This document shows, piece after piece, positions 30,806 to 64,000 of a stretch of DNA of 64,000 nucleotides. Within the stretch, counting starts at the first letter, position 1; every line of letters begins with the position of its first letter. The stretch is from an uncultured Acholeplasmataceae bacterium. GTDB taxonomy: Bacteria > Bacillota_I > Bacilli_A > Acholeplasmatales > Acholeplasmataceae. Location of the stretch: positions 78,728-142,727 of the forward strand of contig CAUTMM010000003.1 of NCBI GenBank assembly GCA_963539835.1, written 5' to 3'. The notes beneath the pieces were generated by a model that had not been told where the DNA came from, did not search any database, and worked only from the letters and a program-made list of their open reading frames with translations. Made by a program: the position numbers and the translations under genes.

Positions 30806-31280
30806 TTAGTGTTTTACTAACACTAAGCCCAACACTGCATTTACAAAATAGACGCCTGGCTGTCCGTCTTTAGTTATATAGTATGCTTTTGGCAAAAAAA
30901 TTTGGCTTACTTTTTGTGCCATTCCATCATATCCCTTCATTGTTGTTTTCATAAAGCAACATCTAGTCAGTTCTTGATTTATCGTATGGATTGAAATTAA
31001 ATTTAGATTGCGGTAAAGCGGAAGTTCACCGCGTTGCTTGCCAAAAACTGCATTTGCACAATCAGTTGCTGTTTTAATTAGTTTATTTTGACTAGCAGAA
31101 TTTTCAGCAATTACTTTTTCAGGTAAATCTTTAAATTGCATAACTACTTTGAACTCATAATTTTAAACCTTTGGTTGCGCTGGTTTACAAGATGTTAAAT
31201 GAAATATCAAAATAGAAGTTAAAGCAACAAAAATAGTAATTGCAGTTGTTAAAACAGTATTTAAGCTGTTTATATTTTCA
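30806..31280 (-). pseudogene. Decayed fourth member of the surface-protein family (N-terminal anchor remnant plus C-terminal 111-codon fragment)
   Basis: The 111-codon ORF (30806-31141; TTG only, no SD) aligns with the last ~110 aa of the 616-aa paralog. NKLIKTATDCANAVFGKQRGELPLYRNLNL matches FKLIKNPTDFALAVLGKETGPNLVYRGVNF, and the end VLGLVLVKH matches VYGLVAAKR. At 31162-31280 a different frame reads ...NTVLTTAITIFVALTSILIFHLTSCKPAQPKV*. That is a TM or lipobox-like leader whose ATG (31280) is one frame off, next to an A4 run. Stops occur in all three frames at the junction. Confidence 0.55.
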
Positions 31281-31331
31281 TATTATTTATTCTTGTTAGG
31301 CGATAATAAAGTATTTATTAAAATAGATTTT

Positions 31332-33143
31332 CTATCTTTTTGCAGCAACTAAACCATAAACTTTAGCCACGTCTGTAAAGCCATAGTCTCCAGTTTCTTC
31401 AATGTATCTGACTAAATTAAGATTAGTACTTTCCTGGGTTGCAGTCCACCAATATTGATTTGAGTCTATAAAAAACTGCGGCATCCAGTTTTCATGGTTA
31501 TAGTTTAGCGGTCTAAATTGAGAGAAATTAACACCTCTGTAAACTAAATTTGGTCCAGTTTCTTTGCCAAGTACAGCCAATGCAAAATCGGTTGGGTTTT
31601 TGATTAGTTTAAAACGATTTGCCGGACTATCTGCAGTTTTTTCAACACCGAACTCACCATCGTCTAACGTAACTGCAAACAGTTCTGCTTTCATGATTTC
31701 AGAAATCTCTTGAAGTAAACTTTTGAAGATAGAGTTTACAAATGTCGCAACCTCAGGTTTGTTGTCTTGATGAATACTAAACGGAGTAAAGTCCAAAATC
31801 TTTTTTGTAAAATATGTTCTTTTATCTGGAATTGGGTCAAACTCAACTTCTTCGAATTTAAAGTATTCTCCATTTAATTTCTCATATGCTTCGCCAGAAT
31901 CGGTGTAAACCACAGTTCTAGTAAACTGTGCGGTTAACACTCTACCAACTGAATTGAAAGTTGCAGGAGTTTGGAAAACAATTTCTTTTTGAATGTCACT
32001 TTGATTAAGTTGAACTTTAGTTTGTGGATATAAGTTTGCCCCGTCTACTATTATGTGTTTGTAGTAAACTGTAATTTTTAGGTTTTTGTCAACCTTTGTT
32101 TTAAAAAGTTCTGCTTTAGTAATTGGAGTTCCGTTTAACTCAATTTTAGAAACTTGAAAGTTTTTGTCTTCTTGTAAATCTATGTTTTTTATTTCTTCGT
32201 TGTGTCTGCGAGTTTGTGGACTAATTTTTTTAGTTGCGGCTTTTATATCAAATTCTAAATTATAAACTTTTCTTTTAACATCTATTGTTACGATGTTTTG
32301 TGCAGGATCTTGAGCCACGACTAAACTTTGTCTGCTAACTTTTGGTGTTTGATAAACGTTTTCATCTGGATTTTTAAAATTAACTTGATGAGTAGAGCCA
32401 ATTTTTGTGTTTACTTCATGTGTGTTGGTAATTATTTGGCCGTTTTCGTCTTCTGTATTAACAATATATTTAACCTTAGTGATAGACGATACAAAAATAG
32501 GTTTGGCTTTTGTATTTTTATTTAATGGTACACTAAAATCTACTTTGTTACCGTCTTCATCAATATAGTGAGAAACCACTTGTTCCACACCTGCTACAAC
32601 TTTTTTAACATTAAAAAGAAGTTCTTTTACAGTTTTACTTAAAGTGTGTGAATACTTAAGTTCATATATTTTAGCAAGGTCTGTATGAATTGTGTCTGGT
32701 TTGATTTCAGGATCTGCGAAATCAAAAGTAACAGTATATTTTTTTAACTCAAAATAAAACACTAATTCCTGACTTGATTTTGTTGTGTCTACTGTCAATT
32801 GTGTTTTAGAAAGTGCTGGGCTGAAATCTGCATTGTGATTTGAAAAATCTTGTTCTGCTTTCAGTACAGTCCAGACTTTTTTAACTTTATCTTGCTTTAA
32901 ACTTACGGTTTTGCCATGTTCATATGCACCAATTTTTTGGTAAACTGTTTTTTCGGAGCCTTGATTGCTTAATTTTTCAAAAACTAATTTAACTCCAACG
33001 ATGGTTTTGTTTTTATCATTGCCTGTTGTTTGGCTACTAGATTTATGAGTTGCTAGCACTGTTGTTAAAGTAATAATAAAAATTAACAAAAAAACGGTTG
33101 CGGCAATTATAGAATAAATTGTGATTTTTTTTCTTTTTGACAT
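31332..33143 (-). CDS. N-terminally anchored surface protein, paralog A (603 aa from the SD-supported start), with a DUF6273-like C-terminal domain
   Basis: GGAG SD before the ATG at 33143 (MSKRKKITIYSIIAATVFLLIFIITLTTVLA). Beta-rich modules are shared with the 762-aa and giant proteins. The C-terminal domain has YPQTKV...NGEYFKFEEVEF...PTDFALAVLG...YWWTATQ...VYGLVAAKR. Confidence 0.8.
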   Translation of the reverse strand: MSKRKKITIYSIIAATVFLLIFIITLTTVLATHKSSSQTTGNDKNKTIVGVKLVFEKLSNQGSEKTVYQKIGAYEHGKTVSLKQDKVKKVWTVLKAEQDFSNHNADFSPALSKTQLTVDTTKSSQELVFYFELKKYTVTFDFADPEIKPDTIHTDLAKIYELKYSHTLSKTVKELLFNVKKVVAGVEQVVSHYIDEDGNKVDFSVPLNKNTKAKPIFVSSITKVKYIVNTEDENGQIITNTHEVNTKIGSTHQVNFKNPDENVYQTPKVSRQSLVVAQDPAQNIVTIDVKRKVYNLEFDIKAATKKISPQTRRHNEEIKNIDLQEDKNFQVSKIELNGTPITKAELFKTKVDKNLKITVYYKHIIVDGANLYPQTKVQLNQSDIQKEIVFQTPATFNSVGRVLTAQFTRTVVYTDSGEAYEKLNGEYFKFEEVEFDPIPDKRTYFTKKILDFTPFSIHQDNKPEVATFVNSIFKSLLQEISEIMKAELFAVTLDDGEFGVEKTADSPANRFKLIKNPTDFALAVLGKETGPNLVYRGVNFSQFRPLNYNHENWMPQFFIDSNQYWWTATQESTNLNLVRYIEETGDYGFTDVAKVYGLVAAKR

Positions 33144-33191
33144 ATTTCTCCTTAATTTAAAGCGCTTTATTACGATATGCACAAATATTTT

Positions 33192-33220
33192 ACTATAAAC
33201 CTATTTTAATGAGTAATTAA
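33192..33220 (-). promoter_or_regulatory. Weak candidate promoter for paralog A
   Basis: The minus strand reads TTAATT, a 17-nt spacer, then TATAGT. It lies downstream of the paralog B terminator. Confidence 0.3.
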
Positions 33221-33261
33221 TAATTAGATTAAAATTACCGATGCTAACAAATTAGCCTTGA

Positions 33262-33297
33262 TTTCAAAAGAAAACCCCTTTCTAATATAGAAAGGGG
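33262..33297 (-). terminator. Rho-independent terminator of the membrane/CPBP/paralog B operon
   Basis: Minus-strand RNA reads CCCCUUUCU-AUAUU-AGAAAGGGG followed by UUUUCUUUU, 8 nt after the stop of the 762-aa gene. Confidence 0.7.
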
Positions 33298-33304
33298 CAA
33301 ATAT

Positions 33305-35593
33305 TTATTTTTTACCTACAACAACACCAAAAACATTATAAACTGGGAAATAAGACCAATCCATTTTGTTGTTAATATCTTTTCTATAGACAATATATGA
33401 TTTAGGATCGATGTCTCCATGCTGAGTTGCAAGCCACCAAGAACCAAGATTATCAGGTGCATAATACGGCATCCATCTATCGCTGTCGTAGTCTGAAGGT
33501 TTAAAACCGCTAATGTCGTTTGCACGCAAAGAAGCGTATCTAAAGACTTTAGGTTGCTTAATTTCCGACATTAAAATTTCGGTGGCATAGTCGGTAGATT
33601 CTTTTCTAAGTTTTTCAGGTTCATTTCTAGCAATGTCGTTTACTCCAAACATTTTATCGGATTTGTCAAAAGTCAAAGGGTACAAGTTAGTTGTTCCAAA
33701 AATTTTTGAAATGTTTTGAAATAGACCATTCAAGATTGAGTTTTCGTATTTAGAGTTTTCCTTAACATCTTTTTTATATATATTAAAAGGCGTGTAGTCA
33801 ATAATTTTTTTAGAATAAAACCCAGTGGCACCAGGAATTTGGACAAACTCAACTTCTTCTAACTTAAAGTATTTGCCGTTGAATTTTTCGTATTTATCTG
33901 CACTATTTTTTCTGTAGACATATGTTCGAGTAAAATCAAATTTATGAGTTTTGCTGTCTGATTTAAACTCAAAACTTTGTTGTTTTGTTTCTTCTCTCAA
34001 AATATCTGCTTGCGTTAAGTCTACTTTAGTTTGTGGATATAAATATTTTGGAACAGAAACAACAATTTCAATTCTAACTGGTTTGTAGACTATGTAGTTT
34101 TCAACTTCCACTTTGGTTTTTTCTACATTGCCGATATAAAATTTAAGAATTTTGTCTTTGTATAAACTGTTTGTATCTATTGCGCCAACTTTTGCACCAT
34201 AATACACACCTCTTGCAGGTGGTGCAACTAAAGAGTTTATAACAGTAAAAGAAACTGTAAAGTAGCGACGTTTTAAAGTAATGGTTACTGTGTTTTCAGT
34301 GTTGTCTGCAGATACTTTAAAGGTAGTTCTTGTAAACTCAGGGTCAAAATAAATTACTTTGTTGTAGGCAAAAGAAACGGTGTGAGTTTCACCTATTTTT
34401 TGCTCTTGTGTTTGATAAGAGACTTTGTAGTGTCCATGCTCATTTTGACTTTTAATAATGTAGGTGATTTTACGAGTTTGAATTTCAACTTGAGCATACA
34501 AGTTAAGTTCGTTTACTCCTGCTATGTGTTTTGCTTGAACAGGTCCTGAAACAGAATCTGCCCAACCAATAAAGGTATAGTCGGTTTTTGGCTTAACTGA
34601 CGGATATTCAACTGCTCTGGTCAGTTTAACTAACTTGGTTTTAGGACCAGTAATATCAATGCTGTCATTTCCAATAAAATTTACTTTAGTAGTTTTTAAT
34701 CTATAGTACTGTTTTAAAACAACTGGAGTTCCGGTTTTATTTAGTTTTGCTGACAATAAGTTGCCACTGTGTGCTGTGTCTTTTTCGTATTTAGTTTTGT
34801 CCAAAGCAGTGTATTCTGTGTATTGAACTGTTTTTAAAGCAGTGTCTTTTTTTACTTCTTTAATTTCTTCATATGTGTTGTCAAGAGCACTACTTTCACC
34901 TTGTTTTTCAAGTAGGTGCATTACTGTATATTCTACTTCTAAGGCGGTTTTAGTAAATACTGGTTTGATTTTTAAGTCTGTGTTGTATGCTTTTTCAAAG
35001 TCTAAGGTTTCGCCGTTTTCAAGTAAAAAATGAGAAAGTGTGAACTTATGGGTTTCGTTGTCTTGCATTTTAACTGCAAGCAATGCTGTTTTAATTTCTG
35101 CGGGTATTTTGCTTGTGTACTTTAAGTTAAGTGGTTGTTTTAAGATATCTGAAACTGTAGATTGGTCAATTCCGCTTTCTGTAAAATCAAAAGTTATGCG
35201 GTAAGTTTTGGCTTTAAAGTAAAGTAAAAAATATTGCTTTTCGGCGCTAGAGTGAACTTTTAAAGTTTGCGTTGACTTTACAGAATCTGGTTTATTTTCG
35301 TGATTTTCAGAAACTAAGTCTTTTAATTTAGCGGTAATTTCAGGGTGCGTAATTTCAAGTTCAGTGCCTACTTTAAAATCACCAAGTTTGATTTCTTTTT
35401 CAAAGTCAGGTGCACTGTCTAGAGTTTCGTAAACTGTCTTTAGGTAAACTGTACTTTTGGTTTGAACTTCTGGATTGATTTTATCTTTTATTTTACTTTT
35501 AAAATGTAGTGTAAAAGCAACAGAAAGCGCAAAGATAAAGGCAAGTAATAACGCAAGCAAACCAATTAAAATATATTTCTTTTTAATTTTCAT
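33305..35593 (-). CDS. N-terminally anchored surface protein, paralog B (762 aa), with a Listeria-Bacteroides-repeat-like module and a DUF6273-like C-terminal domain
   Basis: Signal/anchor MKIKKKYILIGLLALLLAFIFALSVAF. YTFIGW repeat motif. Colinear with giant-protein residues ~1466-1640 and ~1889-2453. The C-terminal domain has YPQTKV...NGKYFKLEEVEF...STDYATEIL...SWWLATQ...VFGVVVGKK. Confidence 0.85.
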   Translation of the reverse strand: MKIKKKYILIGLLALLLAFIFALSVAFTLHFKSKIKDKINPEVQTKSTVYLKTVYETLDSAPDFEKEIKLGDFKVGTELEITHPEITAKLKDLVSENHENKPDSVKSTQTLKVHSSAEKQYFLLYFKAKTYRITFDFTESGIDQSTVSDILKQPLNLKYTSKIPAEIKTALLAVKMQDNETHKFTLSHFLLENGETLDFEKAYNTDLKIKPVFTKTALEVEYTVMHLLEKQGESSALDNTYEEIKEVKKDTALKTVQYTEYTALDKTKYEKDTAHSGNLLSAKLNKTGTPVVLKQYYRLKTTKVNFIGNDSIDITGPKTKLVKLTRAVEYPSVKPKTDYTFIGWADSVSGPVQAKHIAGVNELNLYAQVEIQTRKITYIIKSQNEHGHYKVSYQTQEQKIGETHTVSFAYNKVIYFDPEFTRTTFKVSADNTENTVTITLKRRYFTVSFTVINSLVAPPARGVYYGAKVGAIDTNSLYKDKILKFYIGNVEKTKVEVENYIVYKPVRIEIVVSVPKYLYPQTKVDLTQADILREETKQQSFEFKSDSKTHKFDFTRTYVYRKNSADKYEKFNGKYFKLEEVEFVQIPGATGFYSKKIIDYTPFNIYKKDVKENSKYENSILNGLFQNISKIFGTTNLYPLTFDKSDKMFGVNDIARNEPEKLRKESTDYATEILMSEIKQPKVFRYASLRANDISGFKPSDYDSDRWMPYYAPDNLGSWWLATQHGDIDPKSYIVYRKDINNKMDWSYFPVYNVFGVVVGKK

Positions 35594-35604
35594 ATATCTC
35601 CTAA

Positions 35605-36150
35605 TTAAATTAAGTTATAGTGGCTCAAAACATATAAAAAGTCGTTAAAACTTTTTGAGTTTCTAATTACATCAATGTTTTTGTTTAGTTTAAATGTTTC
35701 TGTACTGTTTTGAGTTTTTAAAGTTAAGGTATTTCCTTCAAAAAAAACTTCACTAAAGTCGCTAGGTGAAATTAAATAAACAATGTTAAAGTCAGTAGAG
35801 TTTACCAACTTAAACTTAAGGTCTTTGGTGACTGCAAAAATGTAAGTTCCTGCAGTAACAGTTGAGTTTTTCACAACAAATGGGCTCTGAATTTCTACGT
35901 CAAAAACTTCACGTTCATGTTCTAAATAAATTTGGGTTTTATTGTTGTTTTTTTGCTCAATTGTATTAAAAGTTAAAGTTAAAATAATAGAAATTACAAA
36001 CAAAGCACCTGAAAGCGAAAGTAAAATAATATAGACTAACTTAACGCGAAAGTCTGCAATTAAAAAGAAAAAACCAACTAAAAATAAAATAAAGGCAACA
36101 ACAGTTAATACAAAATTAACAATTCTTTTGATCTGCATTATCTTAAGCAA
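35605..36150 (-). CDS. Small membrane protein (2 N-terminal TM helices plus a ~110-aa beta-rich domain)
   Basis: 181 aa. Overlaps the upstream gene by 8 nt. The topology resembles bacterial PH-domain (YdbS/YdbT-like) membrane proteins, but that is only a resemblance. Confidence 0.6.
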   Translation of the reverse strand: MLKIMQIKRIVNFVLTVVAFILFLVGFFFLIADFRVKLVYIILLSLSGALFVISIILTLTFNTIEQKNNNKTQIYLEHEREVFDVEIQSPFVVKNSTVTAGTYIFAVTKDLKFKLVNSTDFNIVYLISPSDFSEVFFEGNTLTLKTQNSTETFKLNKNIDVIRNSKSFNDFLYVLSHYNLI

Positions 36151-37810
36151 GGAACAGTGTTATGACTGCTATTGTATTGTGTAAAATATGCAGCACTGAA
36201 GTTACAACCACGTTTCTTTTTGAGTAAACATAGACTAAAGAAAATGCCAGGCCACCTACTAAATATGCAAAGATATTGTAAGCAAACAAAGTAAACGAAG
36301 ACTCATTGACTACGTGGATTGCACCAAACACCAAGGTAGAAATTAAAACCCCTGGCCAGTTGGTTTTAAATAGAGAAAAAATTGCTTTTCTGAAAACTAG
36401 TTCCTCAATAATTGGACCAAATATACAAACTGTGAATATCAAGAACCATTTAAACTCGCCTCGCATCGCCGTTTCTATGGTTTGCTGGTTAAGCGATTCT
36501 CTAGAAAGTGCGTATCCGTAAACACCATCAATACTTGCGCGCATAGATTGCACGACAAATCCACCAACTATTGAAACTCCGAAAGAGATACCAAGGCCAA
36601 ATAGTAAAACTAGCCAATTTTTATTTAAAGCCAGTGTGTCTTTCTTAATAAATACAAAGTTTAACCCAAAAATTAAAGCAAAGCCAACTGCCATGCCGAT
36701 AAAGTTAAATAAAGCAAACGCATTGACTTGAGAAGTTATATTTTCGGCAAAGTATACATCGTGTTTAAGCAGGGCTGTAGTTTCTAATTCAGACTCTGTT
36801 TTTTGTACAAAAAATGGTAGTTTTTGAATGTTTTGATCAACATACACGCGCTCATAGACATCTCTTCTGTCAGAACCCGCAAGCGGCACATTTGCCAGCA
36901 CCCTTGAGTAAAGTACAGGATATAGGTCCTTTTTAATTTTTGAAGTCAAACCAATTAGTCTGCTGGTTTTACTAATGTAAATATCTGGAAACTCAGCACT
37001 TGGTGCTTCTACTTTTTGATATCCTTCAATTTGACTGTTTTTTTGATACTTGCGCACAACTACTGTGTATTTATCTAATTTAACATCTTTGATGTTAGAA
37101 AAAGTGCTAATAATTTTTCGGTCTTGAGAATCTGCGTAAATTAGTTGTGGCAAGGTTATGCCAAAGCCTGCAGTTTCAGCAATATCAAAGAAAACTAAGC
37201 GGTTTAAGATTTTGTTTTCTTTTTTGGCTTGTTCAAAATTATTTAAAGCAGCATGTTGCTCAGGAGTTAGTGATTTAGTATTGTCTGACTTGATTTTAAG
37301 AATTTGGCTAATCTTTGCTTTTTCGGCCAGAGTTTGAATGTATAAGTTTTGAAGATCAACTAGGTTTGCGTAAACTACACTACTTTCTTTGCTTTGAAAA
37401 GTTGAGTATTCGCCAAAAGTTTTGGCAATCAAGTTGTGCTTCTTTTCAAGTTCTTTAACCTTATTAACATCGCTAATTTTATAAATTCCAATATTGGTTT
37501 TGTGTTGTTTAATTTGTCTAAAAAAACTCTCTTCTTTAGTGGTTACCTTAGAAAGGATGTTGTTTTTGCCTTTATTGGCTTTTTGAAACAACGACATCAT
37601 TGCACCAGTTAAAATAAACATCAAAAAGTAAAGTAAGAAAGTTAAAACAGCCCAAAGCACAGTTTTTTTAGTGACTTCGAAGCGTTGAGGTGCTTTGGTT
37701 TTTTTAACTGGTTCAAACTGTTTTTCGTAGTCTGGTCCAAATTGCTTTATAGGTTCTGCATCTGTTTTAGTCTCTTTTAATTCGTCTGGTTTTTTTTCAA
37801 TGATTTCCAT
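36143..37810 (-). CDS. CPBP-family (Abi/CAAX-type) intramembrane glutamic endopeptidase with a large N-terminal extracytoplasmic domain
   Basis: 555 aa. One N-terminal TM, then a ~300-aa domain of unrecognised family, then a polytopic C-terminal region. That region carries the three CPBP motifs IIEELVFR (EExxxR), FGAIH (FxxxH) and HILHN (HxxxN). Confidence 0.8.
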   Translation of the reverse strand: MEIIEKKPDELKETKTDAEPIKQFGPDYEKQFEPVKKTKAPQRFEVTKKTVLWAVLTFLLYFLMFILTGAMMSLFQKANKGKNNILSKVTTKEESFFRQIKQHKTNIGIYKISDVNKVKELEKKHNLIAKTFGEYSTFQSKESSVVYANLVDLQNLYIQTLAEKAKISQILKIKSDNTKSLTPEQHAALNNFEQAKKENKILNRLVFFDIAETAGFGITLPQLIYADSQDRKIISTFSNIKDVKLDKYTVVVRKYQKNSQIEGYQKVEAPSAEFPDIYISKTSRLIGLTSKIKKDLYPVLYSRVLANVPLAGSDRRDVYERVYVDQNIQKLPFFVQKTESELETTALLKHDVYFAENITSQVNAFALFNFIGMAVGFALIFGLNFVFIKKDTLALNKNWLVLLFGLGISFGVSIVGGFVVQSMRASIDGVYGYALSRESLNQQTIETAMRGEFKWFLIFTVCIFGPIIEELVFRKAIFSLFKTNWPGVLISTLVFGAIHVVNESSFTLFAYNIFAYLVGGLAFSLVYVYSKRNVVVTSVLHILHNTIAVITLFLA

Positions 37811-38397
37811 TATTGGCGCTCCTTGACTTTTGAGTTGTCAGATTCTTTTAGCTCTATTTCTTTGTTTTCTAGTTCTTCAGTTTCCACTCCTTTAATTTCG
37901 CTTTCGTTTAGATGGCTTTCCAAGTCATTCAAATCAACGCAGGTAGTTTGAATAACTTCGGGTTCAACTGAATCAGCTTCGTTCTCATGGGGTTTTGCTT
38001 GTTTATATGTATTCATTAGTTGTTTTTCTCTGACCTTCCACGTTGTAGTTAAACAAAAAGGAACAGCGATAGCGATAGAAGAAACGCCAACTACAATAAA
38101 TGCAATTGCCAAAATTAACGAAAAAGTCTTAGTTGGATCAAATAAATTGATGTAAAAAGGAATTAACATCAAAAATCCCGCAACAGAATACAAAATATCA
38201 TCCATATTTTTTTCAAACTTATAAAAATAAAGCCCAATAGTTGTAGCAATTAAGTTAACTCCAAATATAGACTTTGCGACTATGTAGCAAATTAAAAGGT
38301 TATAATTAGTTGGACTTTTAATAAAACTAAAGCCGATTGTAACTGCCAAAATTATTGATGTGATTAAAATATAATAACTTCTTTTTTCTTTAAACAT
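37810..38397 (-). CDS. Polytopic membrane protein (about 4 TM) with an acidic C-terminal tail
   Basis: 195 aa. Its stop overlaps the next ATG (TAATG at 37808-37812). No family recognised. Confidence 0.62.
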   Translation of the reverse strand: MFKEKRSYYILITSIILAVTIGFSFIKSPTNYNLLICYIVAKSIFGVNLIATTIGLYFYKFEKNMDDILYSVAGFLMLIPFYINLFDPTKTFSLILAIAFIVVGVSSIAIAVPFCLTTTWKVREKQLMNTYKQAKPHENEADSVEPEVIQTTCVDLNDLESHLNESEIKGVETEELENKEIELKESDNSKVKERQ

Positions 38398-38487: not shown

Positions 38488-39147
38488 GTGAAAAAAACTA
38501 TCTTAGTAGTAGGCCTTGATAATTTCGGGCAAACAATTTGCAAAGACTTATCTGAAAACGGACATATCGTAATTGCACTTGACCAAACTAGTGAAAAAAC
38601 TTTGAGAGTTGAGCCTTTTGTCGAACACGCTGCAACTGGTGTTTTGACAACCGCAGACATCTACAAAGACCTTGGACTTGGCCACGCTGACTGGGCTGTG
38701 GTTTCATTTCCAACACACTTTGACACTGCGATGATTATTGTAACTATCTTAAAAGATTTAGGAATGACAAATATTATTTGCCAGGTTACTAACGAATATC
38801 AAGAGCGAATTGCCAAAATGCTTGGAGCTTCGGTTACTATTTATCCAGATAACATCGCAAGTAAACAAACTGTTCGCAAAATCATTTGGCAGAATGTACT
38901 GGAACACTATGCACTAGACCAAAACTACGGAGTTTACGAAGTAATTGTTAATACCAACCGTTATGACGGAAAAACTCTAAGAGAACTGCAATTTCCAGAG
39001 ACTTATTCGGTAAACATTGTGCTAATTCGCAGAGCAGGTGTGACGAAAATGCCTTCTAAAAATGAAGTTTTAGAGAAAAATGACGTCGTAATTGTATTGT
39101 GCGAGCAAAACAAAATCAGTAAATTTCAAGAAATCTTAAATGACTAA
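38488..39147 (+). CDS. RCK-domain K+ transport regulatory subunit (KtrA/KtrC/TrkA-like)
   Basis: 219 aa. Rossmann motif VVGLDNFGQTICKDL...VIALD (RCK_N). The RCK_C part is colinear with Bacillus KtrA. No KtrB/TrkH membrane partner is adjacent. Confidence 0.85.
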   Translation: MKKTILVVGLDNFGQTICKDLSENGHIVIALDQTSEKTLRVEPFVEHAATGVLTTADIYKDLGLGHADWAVVSFPTHFDTAMIIVTILKDLGMTNIICQVTNEYQERIAKMLGASVTIYPDNIASKQTVRKIIWQNVLEHYALDQNYGVYEVIVNTNRYDGKTLRELQFPETYSVNIVLIRRAGVTKMPSKNEVLEKNDVVIVLCEQNKISKFQEILND

Positions 39148-56208: not shown

Positions 56209-59200
56209 TTAAGAATAAATGTATGGACGACAAGGCACAACCCCACCAATAAAGTTCATTGGGTAGTGAGTGTTACTAAAATATGTTGAGTTAGTGCGAT
56301 AAACACCTGTTATACCTTCAATATAGCCATTATAATTTTTATAAACTTCTGCGGTAAGATATGCATATGGTCGTTTACTTTGATCGTTGTATTGATTATC
56401 TTCAAAATACCAACTAGACAAATAATTAGTTAAACTAGCCGGAATTAGTTTAGCAAAATCAATACCACGATAAATTTGTGTAGTAGCCGCAGTCCAAGGT
56501 CCAAGAATTTCTTTTGCATAATCTGTAGGTTCTTTGACTAATTTGTTTATCTTACTTGGATTTACAGAATGGTAAAGAGCGTTATCTCCATGACTCCAGG
56601 TAGGTGGTGTAAGTTCTGCGATTCCCATAACCGCAGCAATATCTTTAAGCATCGCTTTGAAAATTGAGTTTTTAAATTCATATCCGGCGTAACCTCGGTT
56701 TGCAGATATAGTGTATGGCGAAAAGTCAATAATTTTTTCTGTCATTAAACTTTCTTTTGTAGCTAGTTTCTTCCAAACAACATCTTCAAATTTAAAGTAT
56801 TTGCCGTTATATTTCTCAAAACGATTGCCTTGCGTATCTTTTACAAATACACGGTTGAACTTAGCAACAAGGTCAAAGCCATCTGCGTTGAAGCGAAGTG
56901 TTCTTTCACTAACTTCTTCGGCTTCAAGACTACCTGGATTTTCTACTAAAGTTTGTGGGTACTGATATTTAACTTCTTCATACCAACCAAATTTCAAGGA
57001 GACTTCCGTGTTTTTTGTAACTAAATAGGTTTCAATGTAGGCTAAATTGTGTTTTGCGATTTTTTGACCGTCAATTCGGAAATCCAGGCGGTCAAAGCCA
57101 TAATATTCAACTTGACTTATTTCAATTTTGCCAATTGCAGCACCATGTTTAAGTCTGCGTTCATATAATTGGTATAGATCTTGCGGTGCACCTTCAACAT
57201 TGAAAGTTACTTTATAGACGTGTAGTTTTAAATAGATAGTAACAACATTGTGTTGGTCATCTTTGTGAACTGTGATAGTTGGATTTGAAAAAGTCATTTC
57301 GTATTTTTCAGGTTCAGGGTTTTCATATTTAGCGGCGTAAAAAGAACCAATTTTTGCTTTGTCTTTTTTAAATTTAGTTATCTCGTATTCACCGTCTAAC
57401 TTTTCCTTGCGAATTTCATAAGTAATATCTCTTTCTTTGGCTATGTAGACTGGATATAAGTAAATACTTTCCTTAGTAATAGGGGCAACAAATTTAGTTA
57501 AAGGTCCATCAATGTTAGCAGGATAATTAGACCAACCCGCAAAAGTCTCGGAATCAGTATCCGGAAGTTTGCGAGATAGGTTCACCAAGCGAGTCATTTT
57601 AACTTGCACGCCTTCTGGATATTGGTCGTTAATAGTTTTTTTGTAGTATACAGTGACAGACTTAAGTGAATAGTACTGATAAACTTTAACGGTGTTATCA
57701 CCTGGTGTTAAGTCAGCGGTTAGTTGATTTGCTTTAGTAGTATCTAAAAAGTAAAGGTCGTTGTTTAATTTAGGATATGCTTCGTATTTTGCACCCAATT
57801 CAACTAGTTGGTCTTTTTTAGTTTCAATAATTTCGTCGTACTTGTCGTTTAGATCAGCAGACTCACCTTGTTTTTCAAGGTAGTGTACGATTTGATAATT
57901 GACTTTGTGAATTTCAACTTCAAAGAAAGGCAAGAGGTCAACAGGTCCGGCAATTCTGTAGGTACTAAAATCTAAAGCAGTGGTTTCTAAATAAGCGCCA
58001 TTCATTTCTTTGCTGTCTTGCCAGTGTTTAAATTTATAAGTGCGACCATGGAAAACAATTGAAGGGTTAATTAACGGTTTAGGGATTTTTGCACCATACT
58101 TAAGCATTAGTTTAGTTGGCATATCGTTTATTTTTAGACCTTGGTTTGAAAAATAATAATAATTTATAAAATGTCTATCCCAAGTTACTTGAAAAACTTT
58201 GCGTATGTATCTTAACTTAAATACGGTAGAACCGTCTGGTGCAATATTTTGAGTCTGGCTATCTGACATTGTAAACCCGTGGTAGTACTTCCACATACCG
58301 TCTTTGCCGTCAACAGTTACCGAGGTGTTAGAAATTGCTCTTCTGGTAACTGTGCGAACTTCTTCAGCGATATCTCCTTCAATTCCTTCAAAAATGTGCT
58401 CAATTGTGTAAGTAGTGTAGTCTGGCGCAAATACTGCGTAGACTTTAGTAGTGTTTCTTGTGATGATAAAATCACCTGGTTTTCCTTTTGGAACAGATGC
58501 CCAACCGACAATCTTCCAGCCTTTTTTGACGTTAGTATTCGTATTAAATCTAAAGTAATTGCCAGCAGTTGCTTGAATAGACGGCCAGGTTGGATTCTCT
58601 ACTTTATCTAGGTCGTCGTCGTCAACGGTTGGAGTGATTTTAACGGTAACTTTTCTCTTTTTATATTTAGCCTCTAAGAATACGTTTTTGTTGTAAGCAA
58701 CTGTTGGGTCAAACTTGGTGCCTGAAACTAAAAAGCGATCAAACTCATAGTCAAAATATTGGTTTGTTGTAATTGGTTTGATTTGAGCAAGTTCATCTAA
58801 GAATCTCTTTGAAACGGTTTGTGAATATTTAACTGTCTCACCATTTTTAACATAGTCAGAAATAGAAGAAGAATCAGTTTCATTATAGGTATAAAACCTA
58901 ACTGTGTAGGTATTGGCCTTGTAGTAAGCAGTTAAAAACTTCTTGTCTTTTTCTTTCGTTACTATCAATTCAAATACAGTATTTTGACTCTTTGTGTAGT
59001 CGTTAATGTGGTTTGGATGCGGGTTGTTTCGCAGGTATTCACTGATAATTGAATCAAACCTTTTTAAATCAATCTTACCACCAATTGTAACGTCAATTGG
59101 ATACGGCAATTCTTTGACTTCATCTGGTGAGTTGTCTAGAGTTTCCCAAACTAAACGGACATAAACAGGGCGAGTGGCTTGATTTTCTTGCCACTTCGCT

Positions 59201-62200
59201 TTCAAAGTAAGGTCGCTGGTTACCACAGTTGGAGAATTGTCAGGGTCAAACGAAATACTTGAGTTGTCCAAAGAATTTACCCATCGTCTAAATTTATAAA
59301 TTATTTCTGCATTAGGGTCAATTTTAGTAGGGTGTTTAACATCTTTAATAATTTGTTGGTATTTATACTGAACTGAGGTGTGTGAGTTGCCGTTAACTTC
59401 ACCTCCATTATAGTCGTAAGTTACAGTAAAGATTTTTCTTGTGTAATTTAAAACAAAACTAGTTTGTCCGTTTGCCAGTATTTTTTTCTCTTCAGAAAAA
59501 GGAGCAAGTTCAAAACCTTCTTCTAGTCTAACCAGACGGTCAGCCTCAGTTACTTTAACAGTTGAGTTTACTACACCTATTTTGGTTTCTAGTTCTATTC
59601 TTTCAGGGATATTGTCAACACCAGGCAAGACGTGCTTGATAGTGTAGTTTACAGTAGTTTGTTTTTCTTCAAAGAAAGCAACTAAAGTAATATCTTTATT
59701 GACAGTAGTTGAACTAAAGTCAAAAGCAGAAATTTCTTTATATTCACCGTTCATGTCAGTTTTTAGCTGCCAATGTTTAAAGGTGTAAGTATAGCCTTCT
59801 TTAATCATGGTTGGTGCAAACTCAGGTCTGCGGACTTTACCTTGATACTTAATTGCTTGACTAGGTTCAAGAGACTCAGCAACATCACTAAAATAATTGC
59901 CGTTGTAGTTAACTTCAAAGTTAACTTTATACTGTTTACGGAAATATCTTAAGATAAAGTAAGTTGTGGTGTTAGCCTCAATAATTTTAGTTTGAGTTTG
60001 GTCAGCAATGTTAAAGCCTTCGTCGTAGCCAACTAAACGGTTGTCTCGGTTAACTGTGACTTTAGTTCCAACGTTTACTGTGACTTTAGGGTCTTCAATA
60101 GTCTTTGTCTTAACGTTGTCAACACCTTCAATGATGTGTTGAATGATGTAGCCTGCTGTGGTTACAGTTTCTTCAAAGAAGGCAACCAAGGTAATGTTTT
60201 TAGTGATTTTAGTGTTGAAGTTAAACTCACTTACAAAACGGTATGTATCGTTCATATCGTCTTTAAGTTGCCAGTGGATGAATTTGTAGTTAAAGCCTTG
60301 TTTTTGAATAGTTGGGTATTGAGCAGGTCTAATAGCTTTTCCTTCATACTCCACAGTTTGCGGACTTTGACTAGAAGCCTTGACGTCTTTAAAGTGATTG
60401 CCTTTAAAGTTAACTTCAAAAGAGACGGTAAACGTACGGCGACGATACACTAAGGTAAAGACAGTAGAACCGTCTGCTTTGATTGCCTGAGTTTGGTTTT
60501 GTTGATCAACTATAAAGCCTTCGTCATAACCAGGTAGACGATTTTCTCGGTTAATTGTAACTAAACTACCAATTTGCGCAGTTTTACTGTTATCAACAAT
60601 CTCTTGATTGCTGGTCTGACCAGTAATTCCGTTGATAATGTGTTTAATTGTATATTTAGCGTTAGCTGCACTTGACTCAAAATAAGCAACCAACGTTAAG
60701 TTTCTATTAACTTGAACATTGCCAAAATCAAAAGCAGAAACTTTAGCATAATTGCCATTCATTTCGTCTTTAAGTTGCCAGTGAATGAACTTAAAGGTGT
60801 AGCCAGGTTTAGTTAAAATAGGGTGGTTATTTGGTCTCTTAACTCTACCTTCAAAACCAATGATTTGATCTGGCTCCACAGACGAAGTGGCACCTGAGAA
60901 ATATGTGTTATTGTAGTTAACTTCAAAGTTAATACGGTAAGTTTTTCGTGTGTAGACTAAAGTAAATGAAGTAGAACCATCGGCTTCTATTTTCTTAGTT
61001 TGATTTTGTTGTTCCACATCAAAACCGTGGTCATAGTTGTCTTTACGGTTATTGCGGTTAACTGTGACTTGTGAGTTAATTTCTGCGTACTTAGTCTCAA
61101 TAATTTCTTTATCCGGAGAACCGTCAACTCCTTTGATAATGTGCTTAATTGTATATTTAGCACTAGATATGTCTTCTGCAAAAAAAGCAACCAAGTTTAG
61201 ACTTTGTGTAACTTGGTGGTCAGCAAAGTTAAACTCAGGCTGTTCTGTGTACTGCCCGTTCATAGCCAGTTCGTTTTGCCAATGTTTAAAGGTAAAAGTA
61301 CGACCAGGTTTTTCAATTGTTGGGTTAACAGCAGGTTTCTTAACCTTACCTTGATACTTAATTTTTTGGGTTTCTGGGTTTGGAGAAACACTTGCGTCTT
61401 TGACACGGTTGTTGTAGTTTACAGTAAAATTAACTTCAAAAGTTTTGCGTTCATATCTAAGTTCAAACACAGTAGAGCCATCTGCCTGAATAACTTTGCT
61501 TTGACTAGGTGTTTTGACAACAAAACCGGTATCAAACTCAGTTAAACGGTTGCTTTTAGAAATTGTGACGGTGTCGTTAGTTTGCGCCTTGCCATAAGTT
61601 TCTTTGACAACTTCGTCAATTTCATTTTCAATTCCTTCAAGGATATGTCTAACTGTATAAGTAGTTTCAGTTGGAGCAAACACAGCGTAAACTTCAGTTG
61701 TAGTTCTGCTTATTGTAATTTGTTGAACTGGTCCGCCTGGTAAAGTTGTCCAACCTAAGAACTTCCAACCTTTTTTAATGTTTGTGCCTAGTGGCAGATA
61801 GTTAAAATGTTGACCTGCAAATACTTTTTGAACAGGCCAAGTTTGACTGTTGACTTTGTCAACATCCGAGTCTGCTGCTTTTGGAGTTACTGAAACTAAA
61901 ACAGGTTTAGTTTTAAAGACAGGTTTCACAACTATATTTTTATTATATGGAGTGTTAACGTCTAGTTCCAAGCCAGTTGACTCATCTATTAGTTTTTCAA
62001 ACTCGTAGTCATTGTAGTCATCTGCTGGTTTTTGAACTTTTTTCATGGCTTCAATTAACTCAGCAGAAATTTTATTTGAATGTTTAAAGGTGTTAGTGCG
62101 TTTCAAAATATCTGCAACTGATTGATCTGCCAATCCTGTGCGGTTAAATTCAACATTGTAAGTTTTGGCTTTAAAGTAAAAAGTCAAGTATTGTTTTTCT

Positions 62201-64000
62201 AACTTATCTTCAACGTCTATTGCAGTTGTAGAGTTAGCTGAAAACACTTCGTCGTGATGGAAAGGATGTGGATGATTTGCTTTGAATTGAGACAAGGTTC
62301 TCTGAACATCTGAGTCGTCGCTTTTCAGTAGTTTGCCAACTGGTTTTTCTTTTTGAACTAAAGCCTCTTTAATTTCGTCTTGTATGCCGTCTAAGTTCTC
62401 CCAAATCATCTTTAGGTAAACTGGACGAGTGTTGACTTTCTCTTCCCATTTGGCTTTTAAAAGTAATGGTTTGGTAACTTTTACAGGGTAGTCAAAATCA
62501 AGTAAACTACCAGTTTCTTGATTTATCCAACCAACAAAACGATAAACTTTTTGTCCAGTTTGGTCTTTTTTAACAGGGTGGCTGATGTCTTTTAAAGTTT
62601 GCTCATATTGATACTCAACAGTCTTTTTGTTTTCACCATTTAATTCACCTGAATTGTAGTCGTAAACTACATTGAATTTACGACGCACATAGGTTAAGGT
62701 AAAAGTAGTTTGACCATTTGCCTGAATTTTTTTAGTTTCAGTTTGCTGAGGTAAATCAAAGCCGGCAGTTAAGTATTGTTGTAGACCGTTTGCTTCAGAA
62801 ACAGAGACCGTGCTGTCTACTTTGCCAGTTTTAACTTCTGTAACGGTTCTTTCTGCGATTTTTTCAACGCCAGGCAGAACATGGTTGATCGTGTAGTTAG
62901 CAGTAGCCACTTCTTCTTTAAAGTAAGCAACTAAAGTTGTGGCTTTTGTGATTTTGGTGTTAGCGAAATCAAATGGAGTCACTTCTTTATACTCGTTGTT
63001 CATCGCTGCCTTGTCTTGCCAGTGTACAAAGGTGTATGTGTAGCCTGGTTTCTTTAAAGCAGGCGCAAAATCTGGTTTTGCTACTTTTCCTTGAAATGCA
63101 ATGTCTTGTGTAGGTTGCGTGGTTTGAGTAACTCCCGAAAAATGAGAGTTGTTGAAGTTTACTTCAAAGTTTACTTTATAAATTTTTCTAATGTATTTTA
63201 AGACAAAAGTAGTAGAACCATCTGCTTCAATAGTTTTAGTTTGACTTTGCTTCTCTACATCAAATCCTTCATCATAACCGCTTAAACGACTTGAATTGTC
63301 AACAGTTACTTCACTACCTACAAGTGCTGATTTAGTTGAGTCTTTAATAATTTCGTCGTCTTGTCCATCAACTCCTTGAATTTCGTGTCTAATTGTATAG
63401 TTAGCAGTAGTTTTTTCTTCTTCAAAATAAGCAACTAAAGTTATATTGCTAGTGATTTTGGTGTTAGCAAAATCAAAAGCAGAAATTTTTTGGTAGCTGC
63501 CATACATGTAGTCCTTAAGTTGCCAGTGTACAAAGCGGTAGTTAAAACCAGGTTTAGTTAAAGTAGGCAATTGACTAGGAACTGTTGCCTTGCCTTCAAA
63601 TTGTACGGTTTCACTTGCTTGAACAGAAGGAGTGGCGTCTTGAAAGTGGCTGCCTTTGTAGTTAACTTCGTAAGTTACTGTGAATCTACGACGTTTATAT
63701 CTAAGGGTAAAAGTAGTTGAACCATCTGCTAAAATTGGCTTAGTTTGATTTTGTTGTTCAACTTCAAAACCAGCATCATATTGAGTTAAACGGTTTTCGC
63801 GGTTAACAGTAACAAGAGAACCGATTTGCCCTGATTTTGAGGAATCCGTGGTTGTTGAGTCAGCTTGACCAGATAGTCCTTCAAAAACGTGGTTAATGGT
63901 GTATTTAGCAGTTGTAACTTTCTGTTCAAAATAAGCAACTAATGTTAGGTTTTTAGTGATTTTGGTGTTAGTAAAATCAAATGCCTGGATTTTTTCGTAG
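56209..64000 (-). CDS. Giant repeat-containing surface protein (more than 2,596 aa; N-terminus lies beyond the right window edge), with a DUF6273-like C-terminal domain
   Basis: The ORF-track start at 63570 is a TTG inside a repeat. I translated 63571-63999 in the same frame and it stays open, reading ...ADGSTTFTLRYKRRRFTVTYEVNYKGSHFQDATPSVQASETVQFEGKATVPSQ-LPTLTKPGFNYRF. So the gene continues off-window. There is no LPXTG motif or C-terminal TM. Confidence 0.9.
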   Translation of the reverse strand, partial: YEKIQAFDFTNTKITKNLTLVAYFEQKVTTAKYTINHVFEGLSGQADSTTTDSSKSGQIGSLVTVNRENRLTQYDAGFEVEQQNQTKPILADGSTTFTLRYKRRRFTVTYEVNYKGSHFQDATPSVQASETVQFEGKATVPSQLPTLTKPGFNYRFVHWQLKDYMYGSYQKISAFDFANTKITSNITLVAYFEEEKTTANYTIRHEIQGVDGQDDEIIKDSTKSALVGSEVTVDNSSRLSGYDEGFDVEKQSQTKTIEADGSTTFVLKYIRKIYKVNFEVNFNNSHFSGVTQTTQPTQDIAFQGKVAKPDFAPALKKPGYTYTFVHWQDKAAMNNEYKEVTPFDFANTKITKATTLVAYFKEEVATANYTINHVLPGVEKIAERTVTEVKTGKVDSTVSVSEANGLQQYLTAGFDLPQQTETKKIQANGQTTFTLTYVRRKFNVVYDYNSGELNGENKKTVEYQYEQTLKDISHPVKKDQTGQKVYRFVGWINQETGSLLDFDYPVKVTKPLLLKAKWEEKVNTRPVYLKMIWENLDGIQDEIKEALVQKEKPVGKLLKSDDSDVQRTLSQFKANHPHPFHHDEVFSANSTTAIDVEDKLEKQYLTFYFKAKTYNVEFNRTGLADQSVADILKRTNTFKHSNKISAELIEAMKKVQKPADDYNDYEFEKLIDESTGLELDVNTPYNKNIVVKPVFKTKPVLVSVTPKAADSDVDKVNSQTWPVQKVFAGQHFNYLPLGTNIKKGWKFLGWTTLPGGPVQQITISRTTTEVYAVFAPTETTYTVRHILEGIENEIDEVVKETYGKAQTNDTVTISKSNRLTEFDTGFVVKTPSQSKVIQADGSTVFELRYERKTFEVNFTVNYNNRVKDASVSPNPETQKIKYQGKVKKPAVNPTIEKPGRTFTFKHWQNELAMNGQYTEQPEFNFADHQVTQSLNLVAFFAEDISSAKYTIKHIIKGVDGSPDKEIIETKYAEINSQVTVNRNNRKDNYDHGFDVEQQNQTKKIEADGSTSFTLVYTRKTYRINFEVNYNNTYFSGATSSVEPDQIIGFEGRVKRPNNHPILTKPGYTFKFIHWQLKDEMNGNYAKVSAFDFGNVQVNRNLTLVAYFESSAANAKYTIKHIINGITGQTSNQEIVDNSKTAQIGSLVTINRENRLPGYDEGFIVDQQNQTQAIKADGSTVFTLVYRRRTFTVSFEVNFKGNHFKDVKASSQSPQTVEYEGKAIRPAQYPTIQKQGFNYKFIHWQLKDDMNDTYRFVSEFNFNTKITKNITLVAFFEETVTTAGYIIQHIIEGVDNVKTKTIEDPKVTVNVGTKVTVNRDNRLVGYDEGFNIADQTQTKIIEANTTTYFILRYFRKQYKVNFEVNYNGNYFSDVAESLEPSQAIKYQGKVRRPEFAPTMIKEGYTYTFKHWQLKTDMNGEYKEISAFDFSSTTVNKDITLVAFFEEKQTTVNYTIKHVLPGVDNIPERIELETKIGVVNSTVKVTEADRLVRLEEGFELAPFSEEKKILANGQTSFVLNYTRKIFTVTYDYNGGEVNGNSHTSVQYKYQQIIKDVKHPTKIDPNAEIIYKFRRWVNSLDNSSISFDPDNSPTVVTSDLTLKAKWQENQATRPVYVRLVWETLDNSPDEVKELPYPIDVTIGGKIDLKRFDSIISEYLRNNPHPNHINDYTKSQNTVFELIVTKEKDKKFLTAYYKANTYTVRFYTYNETDSSSISDYVKNGETVKYSQTVSKRFLDELAQIKPITTNQYFDYEFDRFLVSGTKFDPTVAYNKNVFLEAKYKKRKVTVKITPTVDDDDLDKVENPTWPSIQATAGNYFRFNTNTNVKKGWKIVGWASVPKGKPGDFIITRNTTKVYAVFAPDYTTYTIEHIFEGIEGDIAEEVRTVTRRAISNTSVTVDGKDGMWKYYHGFTMSDSQTQNIAPDGSTVFKLRYIRKVFQVTWDRHFINYYYFSNQGLKINDMPTKLMLKYGAKIPKPLINPSIVFHGRTYKFKHWQDSKEMNGAYLETTALDFSTYRIAGPVDLLPFFEVEIHKVNYQIVHYLEKQGESADLNDKYDEIIETKKDQLVELGAKYEAYPKLNNDLYFLDTTKANQLTADLTPGDNTVKVYQYYSLKSVTVYYKKTINDQYPEGVQVKMTRLVNLSRKLPDTDSETFAGWSNYPANIDGPLTKFVAPITKESIYLYPVYIAKERDITYEIRKEKLDGEYEITKFKKDKAKIGSFYAAKYENPEPEKYEMTFSNPTITVHKDDQHNVVTIYLKLHVYKVTFNVEGAPQDLYQLYERRLKHGAAIGKIEISQVEYYGFDRLDFRIDGQKIAKHNLAYIETYLVTKNTEVSLKFGWYEEVKYQYPQTLVENPGSLEAEEVSERTLRFNADGFDLVAKFNRVFVKDTQGNRFEKYNGKYFKFEDVVWKKLATKESLMTEKIIDFSPYTISANRGYAGYEFKNSIFKAMLKDIAAVMGIAELTPPTWSHGDNALYHSVNPSKINKLVKEPTDYAKEILGPWTAATTQIYRGIDFAKLIPASLTNYLSSWYFEDNQYNDQSKRPYAYLTAEVYKNYNGYIEGITGVYRTNSTYFSNTHYPMNFIGGVVPCRPYIYS
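57403..64000 (-). repeat. Divergent in-frame tandem repeats, unit about 504 nt (167-169 aa), nested inside a ~3.25-kb internal duplication
   Basis: The [A/V]xYTIxH motif recurs at residues 56, 224, 637, 804, 971, 1139, 1307, 1720 and 1889 of the tracked ORF. It alternates with KPGYT[YF]xF[VI]HWQ motifs. DNA-level echoes are visible, e.g. gattttggtgttag[ct][ag]aaatcaaa at 62950, 63451 and 63958. Confidence 0.85.

Follow-up and report, generated by a model that had tools for sequence, protein, structure and literature searches.

Adhesins that carry a lectin-type head on a repeat stalk are well known, as are the expanded surface-protein families of Mollicutes. The former include L. lactis YwfG (7YL4) and the Lactobacillus MUB/MucBP adhesins, whose stalks are tandem beta-grasp arrays, and stalk repeats of the Flg_new type occur in the Listeria InlB B-repeat/Flg_new proteins. 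The latter include the variable lipoproteins of mycoplasmas and the membrane proteins of spiroplasmas and phytoplasmas. The DUF6273 domain is found in phage "tentaclins", in other targets of diversity-generating retroelements (DGRs), and in surface proteins of Firmicutes that combine it with Flg_new repeats. It is described as a C-type-lectin-like, receptor-binding DGR target whose variable region is located C-terminally in the domain (PMC10743442, PMC11792537, bioRxiv 10.1101/2024.10.15.618418). Here we analyze a family of paralogous proteins that share a C-terminal domain, termed the head, and that are encoded in a 64,000-nucleotide stretch (the window) of contig CAUTMM010000003.1 from an uncultured Acholeplasmataceae bacterium. 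With a probability of roughly 0.65, these proteins form a lineage-specific family of adhesins that are anchored at the N-terminus, carry lectin-like heads of the DUF6273 superfamily, and function in adhesion or ligand capture.

A hidden Markov model (HMM) of the family finds exactly four copies in the six-frame translation of the window, namely three intact genes and one remnant. All four are on the minus strand, where an earlier note on this DNA had placed them, and their coordinates are listed in Table 1. The note had proposed that the copies share a colinear C-terminal domain, and BLASTP, MAFFT, and HMM comparisons bear this out for a domain of about 235 residues. Full-length BLASTP relates the smallest intact protein (compared as its 616-residue open reading frame, or ORF) to the 762-residue protein with E=2e-51 and to the giant protein with E=8e-42, and the 762-residue protein to the giant with E=3e-47. 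The heads alone match one another well above chance. The identity is 37% over 247 residues between the 616- and 762-residue proteins (E=1e-45), 35% over 195 residues between the 616-residue protein and the giant (E=4e-35), and 31% over 159 residues between the 762-residue protein and the giant (E=4e-24).

All motifs of the head are colinear in a MAFFT alignment of 15 sequences. They occur in the order YPQTKV, YEK-x-NG-x-YFK-x-E-x-V-x-F, KIIDF-x-PF, NSIF/L, TDYA, WW-x-x-TQ, and G-V/L-V. The motif order proposed earlier is therefore retained, but the exact patterns were slightly too strict and are approximate for two members. These are the giant, with YNGKYFKFEDVVW and NSIFKAM, and the 616-residue protein, with PTDFALAVLG.

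The mechanical ORF of the smallest intact member reaches a GTG at position 33182, which gives the length of 616 residues. However, its true start is most likely the ATG at 33143, because AAGGAG lies 6 nucleotides before this codon and the orthologous protein P0019 has 603 residues. An AlphaFold2 (AF2) model of the 603-residue protein, with a mean predicted local distance difference test score (pLDDT) of 85.4, has a helix at residues 3-34 that is joined by a disordered linker to four beta-rich domains (residues 46-363), and the head occupies residues 371-603. The anchor has a 19-residue Kyte-Doolittle mean of 2.76. No cysteine occurs in the N-terminal 40 residues of the 603- and 762-residue proteins, as read from the sequence and not with a dedicated predictor. 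The missing lipobox cysteine and the uninterrupted helix of the model argue against a bacterial lipoprotein. The start of the 603-residue gene (33120-33143, minus strand) reads ATG TCA AAA AGA AAA AAA ATC and contains an A5-G-A8 tract. Slippage in this tract could switch expression, although lysine-rich anchors yield runs of A in an AT-rich genome anyway. The public protein collection contains an identical, unnamed copy of the 762-residue protein. In the giant ORF, no upstream stop occurs in 63571-63999, so the protein has at least 2596 residues, not 2453.

The family is narrow and is restricted to a single clade of uncultured Acholeplasmataceae. When the head is used in a word-indexed search, it retrieves 12 proteins, none of which has a Pfam label, and an exhaustive HMMER search with the family profile against 1.84 billion cluster representatives finds no more than 39 at E<=1e-3. 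With each GTDB species represented by one genome, a scan yields 103 confirmed stretches, and the 78 loci that were kept all derive from 18 metagenome-assembled genomes (MAGs) of uncultured Acholeplasmataceae. Copy numbers per MAG reach at least 10, and tandem arrangement is frequent.

The architecture of the members in the window is repeated across the family. The head is strictly C-terminal, in that all 93 full domains in related loci (93/93) end at most three residues from the stop codon. Among the 65 complete ORFs of at least 500 residues, 54 start with a stub rich in lysine or arginine and a strongly hydrophobic segment. This agrees with the N-terminal transmembrane anchors proposed in the earlier note for the two short proteins, which the AF2 helix also supports. 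The other 11 ORFs begin within the stalk and look interrupted. Family members with in-frame stops, truncations, or no anchor are seen in three related loci (L010 4438-6744, L041 9110-9905, and L008 6845-8548). The interrupted members could reflect frequent pseudogenization, or assembly errors in a repeat-rich family. One protein from elsewhere, P0026, has 4188 residues with 34 Flg_new repeats and five stretches that match the head profile. Its best head match (residues 3586-3794) is followed by about 390 more residues, unlike the strictly terminal heads described here.

The head was compared with DUF6273 by aligning profiles with hhalign, using trimmed domain alignments and 13 proteins with a precomputed PF19789 label. 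The family matches DUF6273 with 96.1% probability (E=3.5e-9) over 204 colinear columns that span both domains. A deeper alignment of 36 family sequences gives 97.7% (E=2.5e-12), or 96.8% without the protein P0050. The matches cover 204-209 colinear columns, with about 18% identity in the profile alignment. Intermediate sequences match the family at 99.7-99.8% and DUF6273 at 99.1%, and controls that were reversed or column-shuffled reach at most 0.5%. Two individual proteins also connect the groups. P0050, a genuine DUF6273 protein by Pfam (E=7.4e-26), is detected by the family profile in the library of 1.84 billion proteins (E=6.8e-4). P0042 matches the family profile at residues 175-296 (E=1.4e-9) and Pfam DUF6273 at residues 327-385, where its score of 24.2 bits is above the gathering cut-off of 23.5 bits. 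These observations favor the interpretation that the head is a true but very distant homologue of DUF6273, judged at the level of sequence. The link had earlier been suggested from motif order; it is supported indirectly, by profile comparisons and bridging proteins, and it fails as a direct score against PF19789, which the earlier note had named as a refuting test.

The likeness to DUF6273 proteins extends to the order of conserved blocks. This order starts with G-x-YPQT and a Y-x-F/K-x-E-P/V-I/V-x-W/F strand, after which KIID occurs; next come a helix, TDYA, and an aromatic W/YW strand, and the domain closes with a G-V-V/R-P/V strand. Both groups co-occur with Flg_new repeats, and in both the greatest variability is in the C-terminal third of the domain, which is the site of the DGR variable region. 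Unlike the described DUF6273 proteins, the heads here are below every Pfam threshold, and their family is confined to one clade, lacks a DGR signature, and always has the head as the last domain of an N-anchored protein. The head is presumed to have a lectin-like fold, to be exposed at the surface, and to bind a ligand. The assignment of the fold is based on homology and on the literature, because a Foldseek search with the isolated head finds no significant match.

The stalk of the giant consists of modules of about 78 residues, called "NYTIKHI" modules, that alternate with Flg_new modules of about 92 residues and precede the head. As the earlier note had anticipated, Flg_new (PF09479) is recognized in the giant, with 62.2 bits against a cut-off of 27 (E=5e-17) and five matched stretches. 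It scores 12.1 bits in the 762-residue protein, under the cut-off, and does not match the 616-residue protein. The resemblance to Listeria InlB B-repeat/Flg_new proteins thus holds for the ~92-residue modules of the giant, whereas the short members miss the cut-off and Flg_new covers the stalk only, not the defining head. A MucBP (PF06458) assignment is rejected by sequence, as the model gives 12.1 bits (E=0.34; cut-off 23) in the 616-residue protein only. Twelve aligned "NYTIKHI" modules give no MucBP match, and a profile of the module finds no PDB sequence.

In its fold, though, the stalk is similar to MucBP-type beta-grasp arrays. When the full-length AF2 model of the 603-residue protein is searched with Foldseek, the lectin adhesin YwfG of L. 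lactis ranks first (7yl4; E=2e-6, probability 1.0). Further matches are Ubl arrays, R. gnavus IbpA, a MUB type-2 repeat, a Pediococcus adhesion domain (probability 0.98), and the InlB B-repeat. The stalk is therefore predicted to be a series of tandem beta-grasp modules, of which the short proteins have four and the giant has more than 25. The short proteins had been viewed as minimal versions of the giant, and they do share modules with it. However, giant residues 340-552 (E=3e-20) are a closer match to the N-terminal module of the 762-residue protein than are residues 1462-1646 (E=2e-12), the approximate region to which this module had been aligned. The module just after the anchor in the short proteins is thus present twice in the giant stalk, at these two places (2453-residue numbering). 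Because of this repetition, the giant may have grown by internal duplication or fusion of whole units.

Codon alignments of orthologues from different MAG species give dN/dS ratios of 0.06-0.36 for the 762-residue gene (11 orthologues) and 0.03-0.33 for the 603-residue gene (12 orthologues). The ratios are lowest in the head, at 0.03-0.15. By this measure, the genes are functional and under purifying selection. Between paralogues, the entropy of the head is 2.2-2.5 bits at domain residues 161-220 and 1.2-1.7 bits elsewhere, and residues 161-220 correspond to the DGR variable region of the phage homologues. No hypervariable region is seen among the 11-12 orthologues. DGR-type or diversifying selection among orthologues is rejected, as dN/dS is at most 0.36 throughout. 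The longest exact DNA match between paralogues is 20-23 nucleotides, and their similarity consists of short motif blocks only. Recombination or recent gene conversion between the two loci, which the earlier note had considered conceivable, is not supported on these grounds.

The remnant was not used in building the family HMM, yet it matches positions 140-233, the last 40% of the domain, with E=3.8e-11. It comprises more than the 111-codon ORF that had been noticed earlier, as an anchor relic precedes this ORF in the same frame. A tblastn search with a 587-residue family member of a more distant MAG (locus L013) aligns its residues 485-586 to the remnant (42% identity, E=3e-16). In the same frame, interrupted by stops, its residues 2-58 also align (E=3e-4); these are the basic stub and transmembrane helix. 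About 425 internal codons are gone. The remnant is closest to the C-terminus of the L013 protein (42% identity over 106 residues) and only 32% identical to its own neighbor. The conserved WW motif is lost, and TDYA is changed to TDCA. In the closest MAG (L002, about 80% nucleotide identity), the corresponding site has a more eroded copy, and the other syntenic MAG loci examined have only about 76 bp at that site and no remnant. Because the in-frame anchor relic with stops is directly upstream of the head fragment, the remnant is, on its sequence, a decaying third tandem paralogue. A conserved small gene is rejected, given the lost motifs, the stops in the anchor relic, and the absence from most relatives. 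Database matches of about 110-120 residues are mostly fragments that start at a conserved "MPTYD" methionine.

Several results weigh against a DUF6273-type, lectin-like adhesin head. Pfam DUF6273 does not match the full proteins at E<=1 or the three isolated heads at E<=10, and NCBIfam and PHROGs do not match any head. The AF2 model of the isolated head, a segment of the 762-residue protein, has a pLDDT of 85.8 and a predicted template modeling score of 0.87. With this model, Foldseek finds no significant structure in the PDB (best E=0.5, with a C-type lectin fifth at E=1.6 and probability 0.04) and one borderline match in BFVD, an uncharacterized Siphoviridae protein (E=0.015, TM 0.39). In addition, the outcome of hhalign depends on alignment depth, because the shallow, untrimmed alignments (A1 and A4) give only 44%, over the N-terminal 87 columns. 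These results would be explained if the head were a new fold unrelated to DUF6273, with motifs that are similar by convergence or chance. We consider this quite unlikely, because the trimmed, deeper alignments match over the full domain and shuffled controls do not, the intermediates bridge at 99% on both sides, and the two halves of P0042 match the family and DUF6273. The PDB, moreover, holds no DUF6273 structure to match; sequence searches of the PDB with the family, DUF6273, and stalk-module profiles find nothing meaningful, and no sequence relative of DUF6273 is among its entries. We also know of no cellular surface protein whose DUF6273 domain has a demonstrated ligand. As an alternative to binding, the head might be an enzyme displayed at the surface that hydrolyzes or modifies a substrate, for example. 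The whole superfamily is without an assigned function, DUF6273 is found fused to an M64 peptidase, and some folds related to C-type lectins (FGE-type) are enzymes. Nonetheless, an enzyme is unlikely, as the residues that are invariant in the 15-sequence alignment do not resemble a catalytic set. Most are aromatic, aliphatic, or structural, and a conserved set of Cys, His, or Ser is lacking. Paralogues diverge most in a region of surface loops with indels, as is usual for binding sites. The DUF6273 domain of the IgA protease ThomasA has no effect on catalysis, which argues against an enzyme, although its role was left open (PMC12402451).

The remaining alternatives concern how the family is used and where it came from. 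Multiple, often tandem copies, a 3' remnant downstream of an intact gene, and interrupted family ORFs in related MAGs are suggestive of an antigenic or phase-variation system. In such a system, the paralogues and the remnant might serve as donors for gene conversion, or a DGR might mutate the head as in phage DUF6273 proteins, in which the variable region corresponds to the part most variable between paralogues here. However, the exact matches between paralogues are confined to 20-23 nucleotides, and the orthologues in 11-12 MAG species are colinear, with heads that are strongly conserved. The remnant is decaying and is missing from most relatives. As for the features of a DGR target, no long nucleotide repeat is present at the 3' ends of the genes, and Pfam scans that cover most of the larger ORFs of the window contain no reverse-transcriptase family. 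A variation system is accordingly judged very unlikely. Still more improbable, to the point that we give it little weight, is that the genes encode tentaclin-like receptor-binding proteins on a prophage. DUF6273 is frequent in gut phages, and the best BFVD match is the Siphoviridae protein mentioned above. In contrast, the genes lie among the housekeeping genes ligA, msrAB, lon, tig, valS, and rplS, at a locus that is syntenic across MAG species. The proteins have an N-terminal membrane anchor and no PHROG matches, and the window has no phage structural or integrase genes.

If the proteins are adhesins with DUF6273-type heads, as we prefer, then the short basic N-terminus and one uncleaved transmembrane helix would hold the protein in the membrane. 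The stalk of tandem beta-grasp modules, which are Flg_new/InlB-B-repeat-like and MucBP-like in fold, would project the head and set its reach. The globular head of about 235 residues, at the far C-terminal tip, would bind a glycan or protein of a host or neighboring surface. The several paralogues of a genome might have different specificities, because they diverge most in the C-terminal third of the head.

This design shares with YwfG and the MUB/MucBP adhesins a lectin-type head on a tandem beta-grasp stalk, without similarity in sequence (12 bits for MucBP, with a cut-off of 23). The L-type lectin head of YwfG is reportedly N-terminal, which gives YwfG the opposite polarity to the proteins here, in which the head is at the C-terminus and a membrane helix serves as the anchor at the N-terminus. 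The reversed polarity suits a wall-less cell, because such a cell has no wall in which to anchor a C-terminus. The family also resembles the multigene surface families of other Mollicutes, which are expanded, lineage-specific sets of membrane-anchored proteins in small genomes of wall-less cells, with pseudogenized copies. It differs in that the anchor is a transmembrane helix, not a lipobox, and in that no evidence of high-frequency switching or recombination is seen.

Table 1. Family members and associated features in the window (positions in nucleotides from the first letter of the window)
Feature	Position	Strand	Basis
Intact short member, 603 residues: transmembrane anchor, four beta-rich stalk domains, C-terminal head (start most likely)	31332..33143	-	AAGGAG, AF2 model, orthologues
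Predicted N-terminal signal anchor of 603-residue protein: MSKRKK, then hydrophobic helix; no lipobox cysteine	33040..33143	-	AF2 helix, residues 3-34
C-terminal head of 603-residue protein	31335..32045	-	HMM positions 3-234, E=3.6e-89
Intact member, 762 residues: transmembrane anchor, stalk, C-terminal head	33305..35593	-	ORF; BLASTP to other members
C-terminal head of 762-residue protein	33308..34051	-	HMM, E=5.3e-92
Giant member, at least 2596 residues; 5' end past window edge	56209..63999	-	Stop-free 63571-63999
C-terminal head of giant	56212..56976	-	HMM positions 3-233, E=1.3e-78
Pseudogene of third tandem member: anchor relic (about 31109-31297, two in-frame stops) fused in frame to last ~106 head codons (111-residue ORF 30806-31141)	30806..31297	-	HMM and tblastn
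Context: three co-oriented membrane-protein genes (195 residues; 555 residues, CPBP/CAAX-type intramembrane protease; 181 residues) directly upstream of 762-residue gene	35605..38397	-	Overlapping or 11-bp junctions; syntenic in related MAGs
Terminator-like hairpin, 11-bp stem then T-run, between 762- and 603-residue genes	33274..33298	-	Sequence; strong hairpin

The window is low in G+C (about 34%), is decoded by the standard genetic code, and contains many housekeeping genes (gidA, tkt, uvrA, ligA, msrAB, lon, tig, valS, rplS, and lgt). The order of genes around the two short members is syntenic across MAGs: trkA, the three membrane-protein genes of Table 1, the 762- and 603-residue genes, a guanylate-kinase-like gene, msrAB, and ligA. 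Synteny of the membrane-protein cluster is seen in L003 and L008. Its 555-residue protein has a C-terminal CPBP/Rce1-like protease domain (Pfam Rce1-like, E=9.6e-16); its match to the NCBIfam CPBP family, at E=2.2e-11, is under the family cut-off. These three genes may be functionally linked to the adjoining surface protein, for example in processing or export.

Three other genes of the window have unusual features. The ORF of lgt, for prolipoprotein diacylglyceryl transferase (22760-24184, minus strand), encodes 474 residues with the LGT domain at residues 60-303, which leaves a long C-terminal extension. A 479-residue ORF (39140-40579, plus strand) is an unusual fusion of a Ham1-type nucleoside-triphosphate pyrophosphatase (residues 4-186) and an APH-type phosphotransferase (residues 303-398). 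Downstream of this fusion gene and overlapping it is a 1000-residue ORF (40576-43578, plus strand) with no Pfam or NCBIfam match, whose product is apparently soluble and has an N-terminal third rich in helix.

The family does not represent a new kind of system. It belongs to a known but uncharacterized domain superfamily, of which it is a divergent branch restricted to one lineage, and its adhesin design is familiar. A more tentative proposal, which we regard as possible but doubtful, is that the family is a hard-wired counterpart of DGR diversification. In each small genome, the clade would keep as many as ten or more diverged heads, which would have one ligand each and sit on stalks that differ greatly in length; together, these heads would set the tropism for a host or niche. 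If so, the decayed and interrupted copies would reflect ongoing turnover of the repertoire under pressure from the host.

The analysis gives a first account, in structural and evolutionary terms, of the main surface-protein family in this clade of uncultured Acholeplasmataceae. The defining head is missed by Pfam, NCBIfam, and PHROGs, and copies of the proteins in the public protein collection are unnamed. A new family HMM would label about a hundred genes that are currently anonymous. The DUF6273 superfamily, so far discussed mainly as a phage receptor-binding or DGR-target domain, would be extended to Mollicutes. The family also offers a natural set of diverged heads with which to find what this lectin-like module binds.

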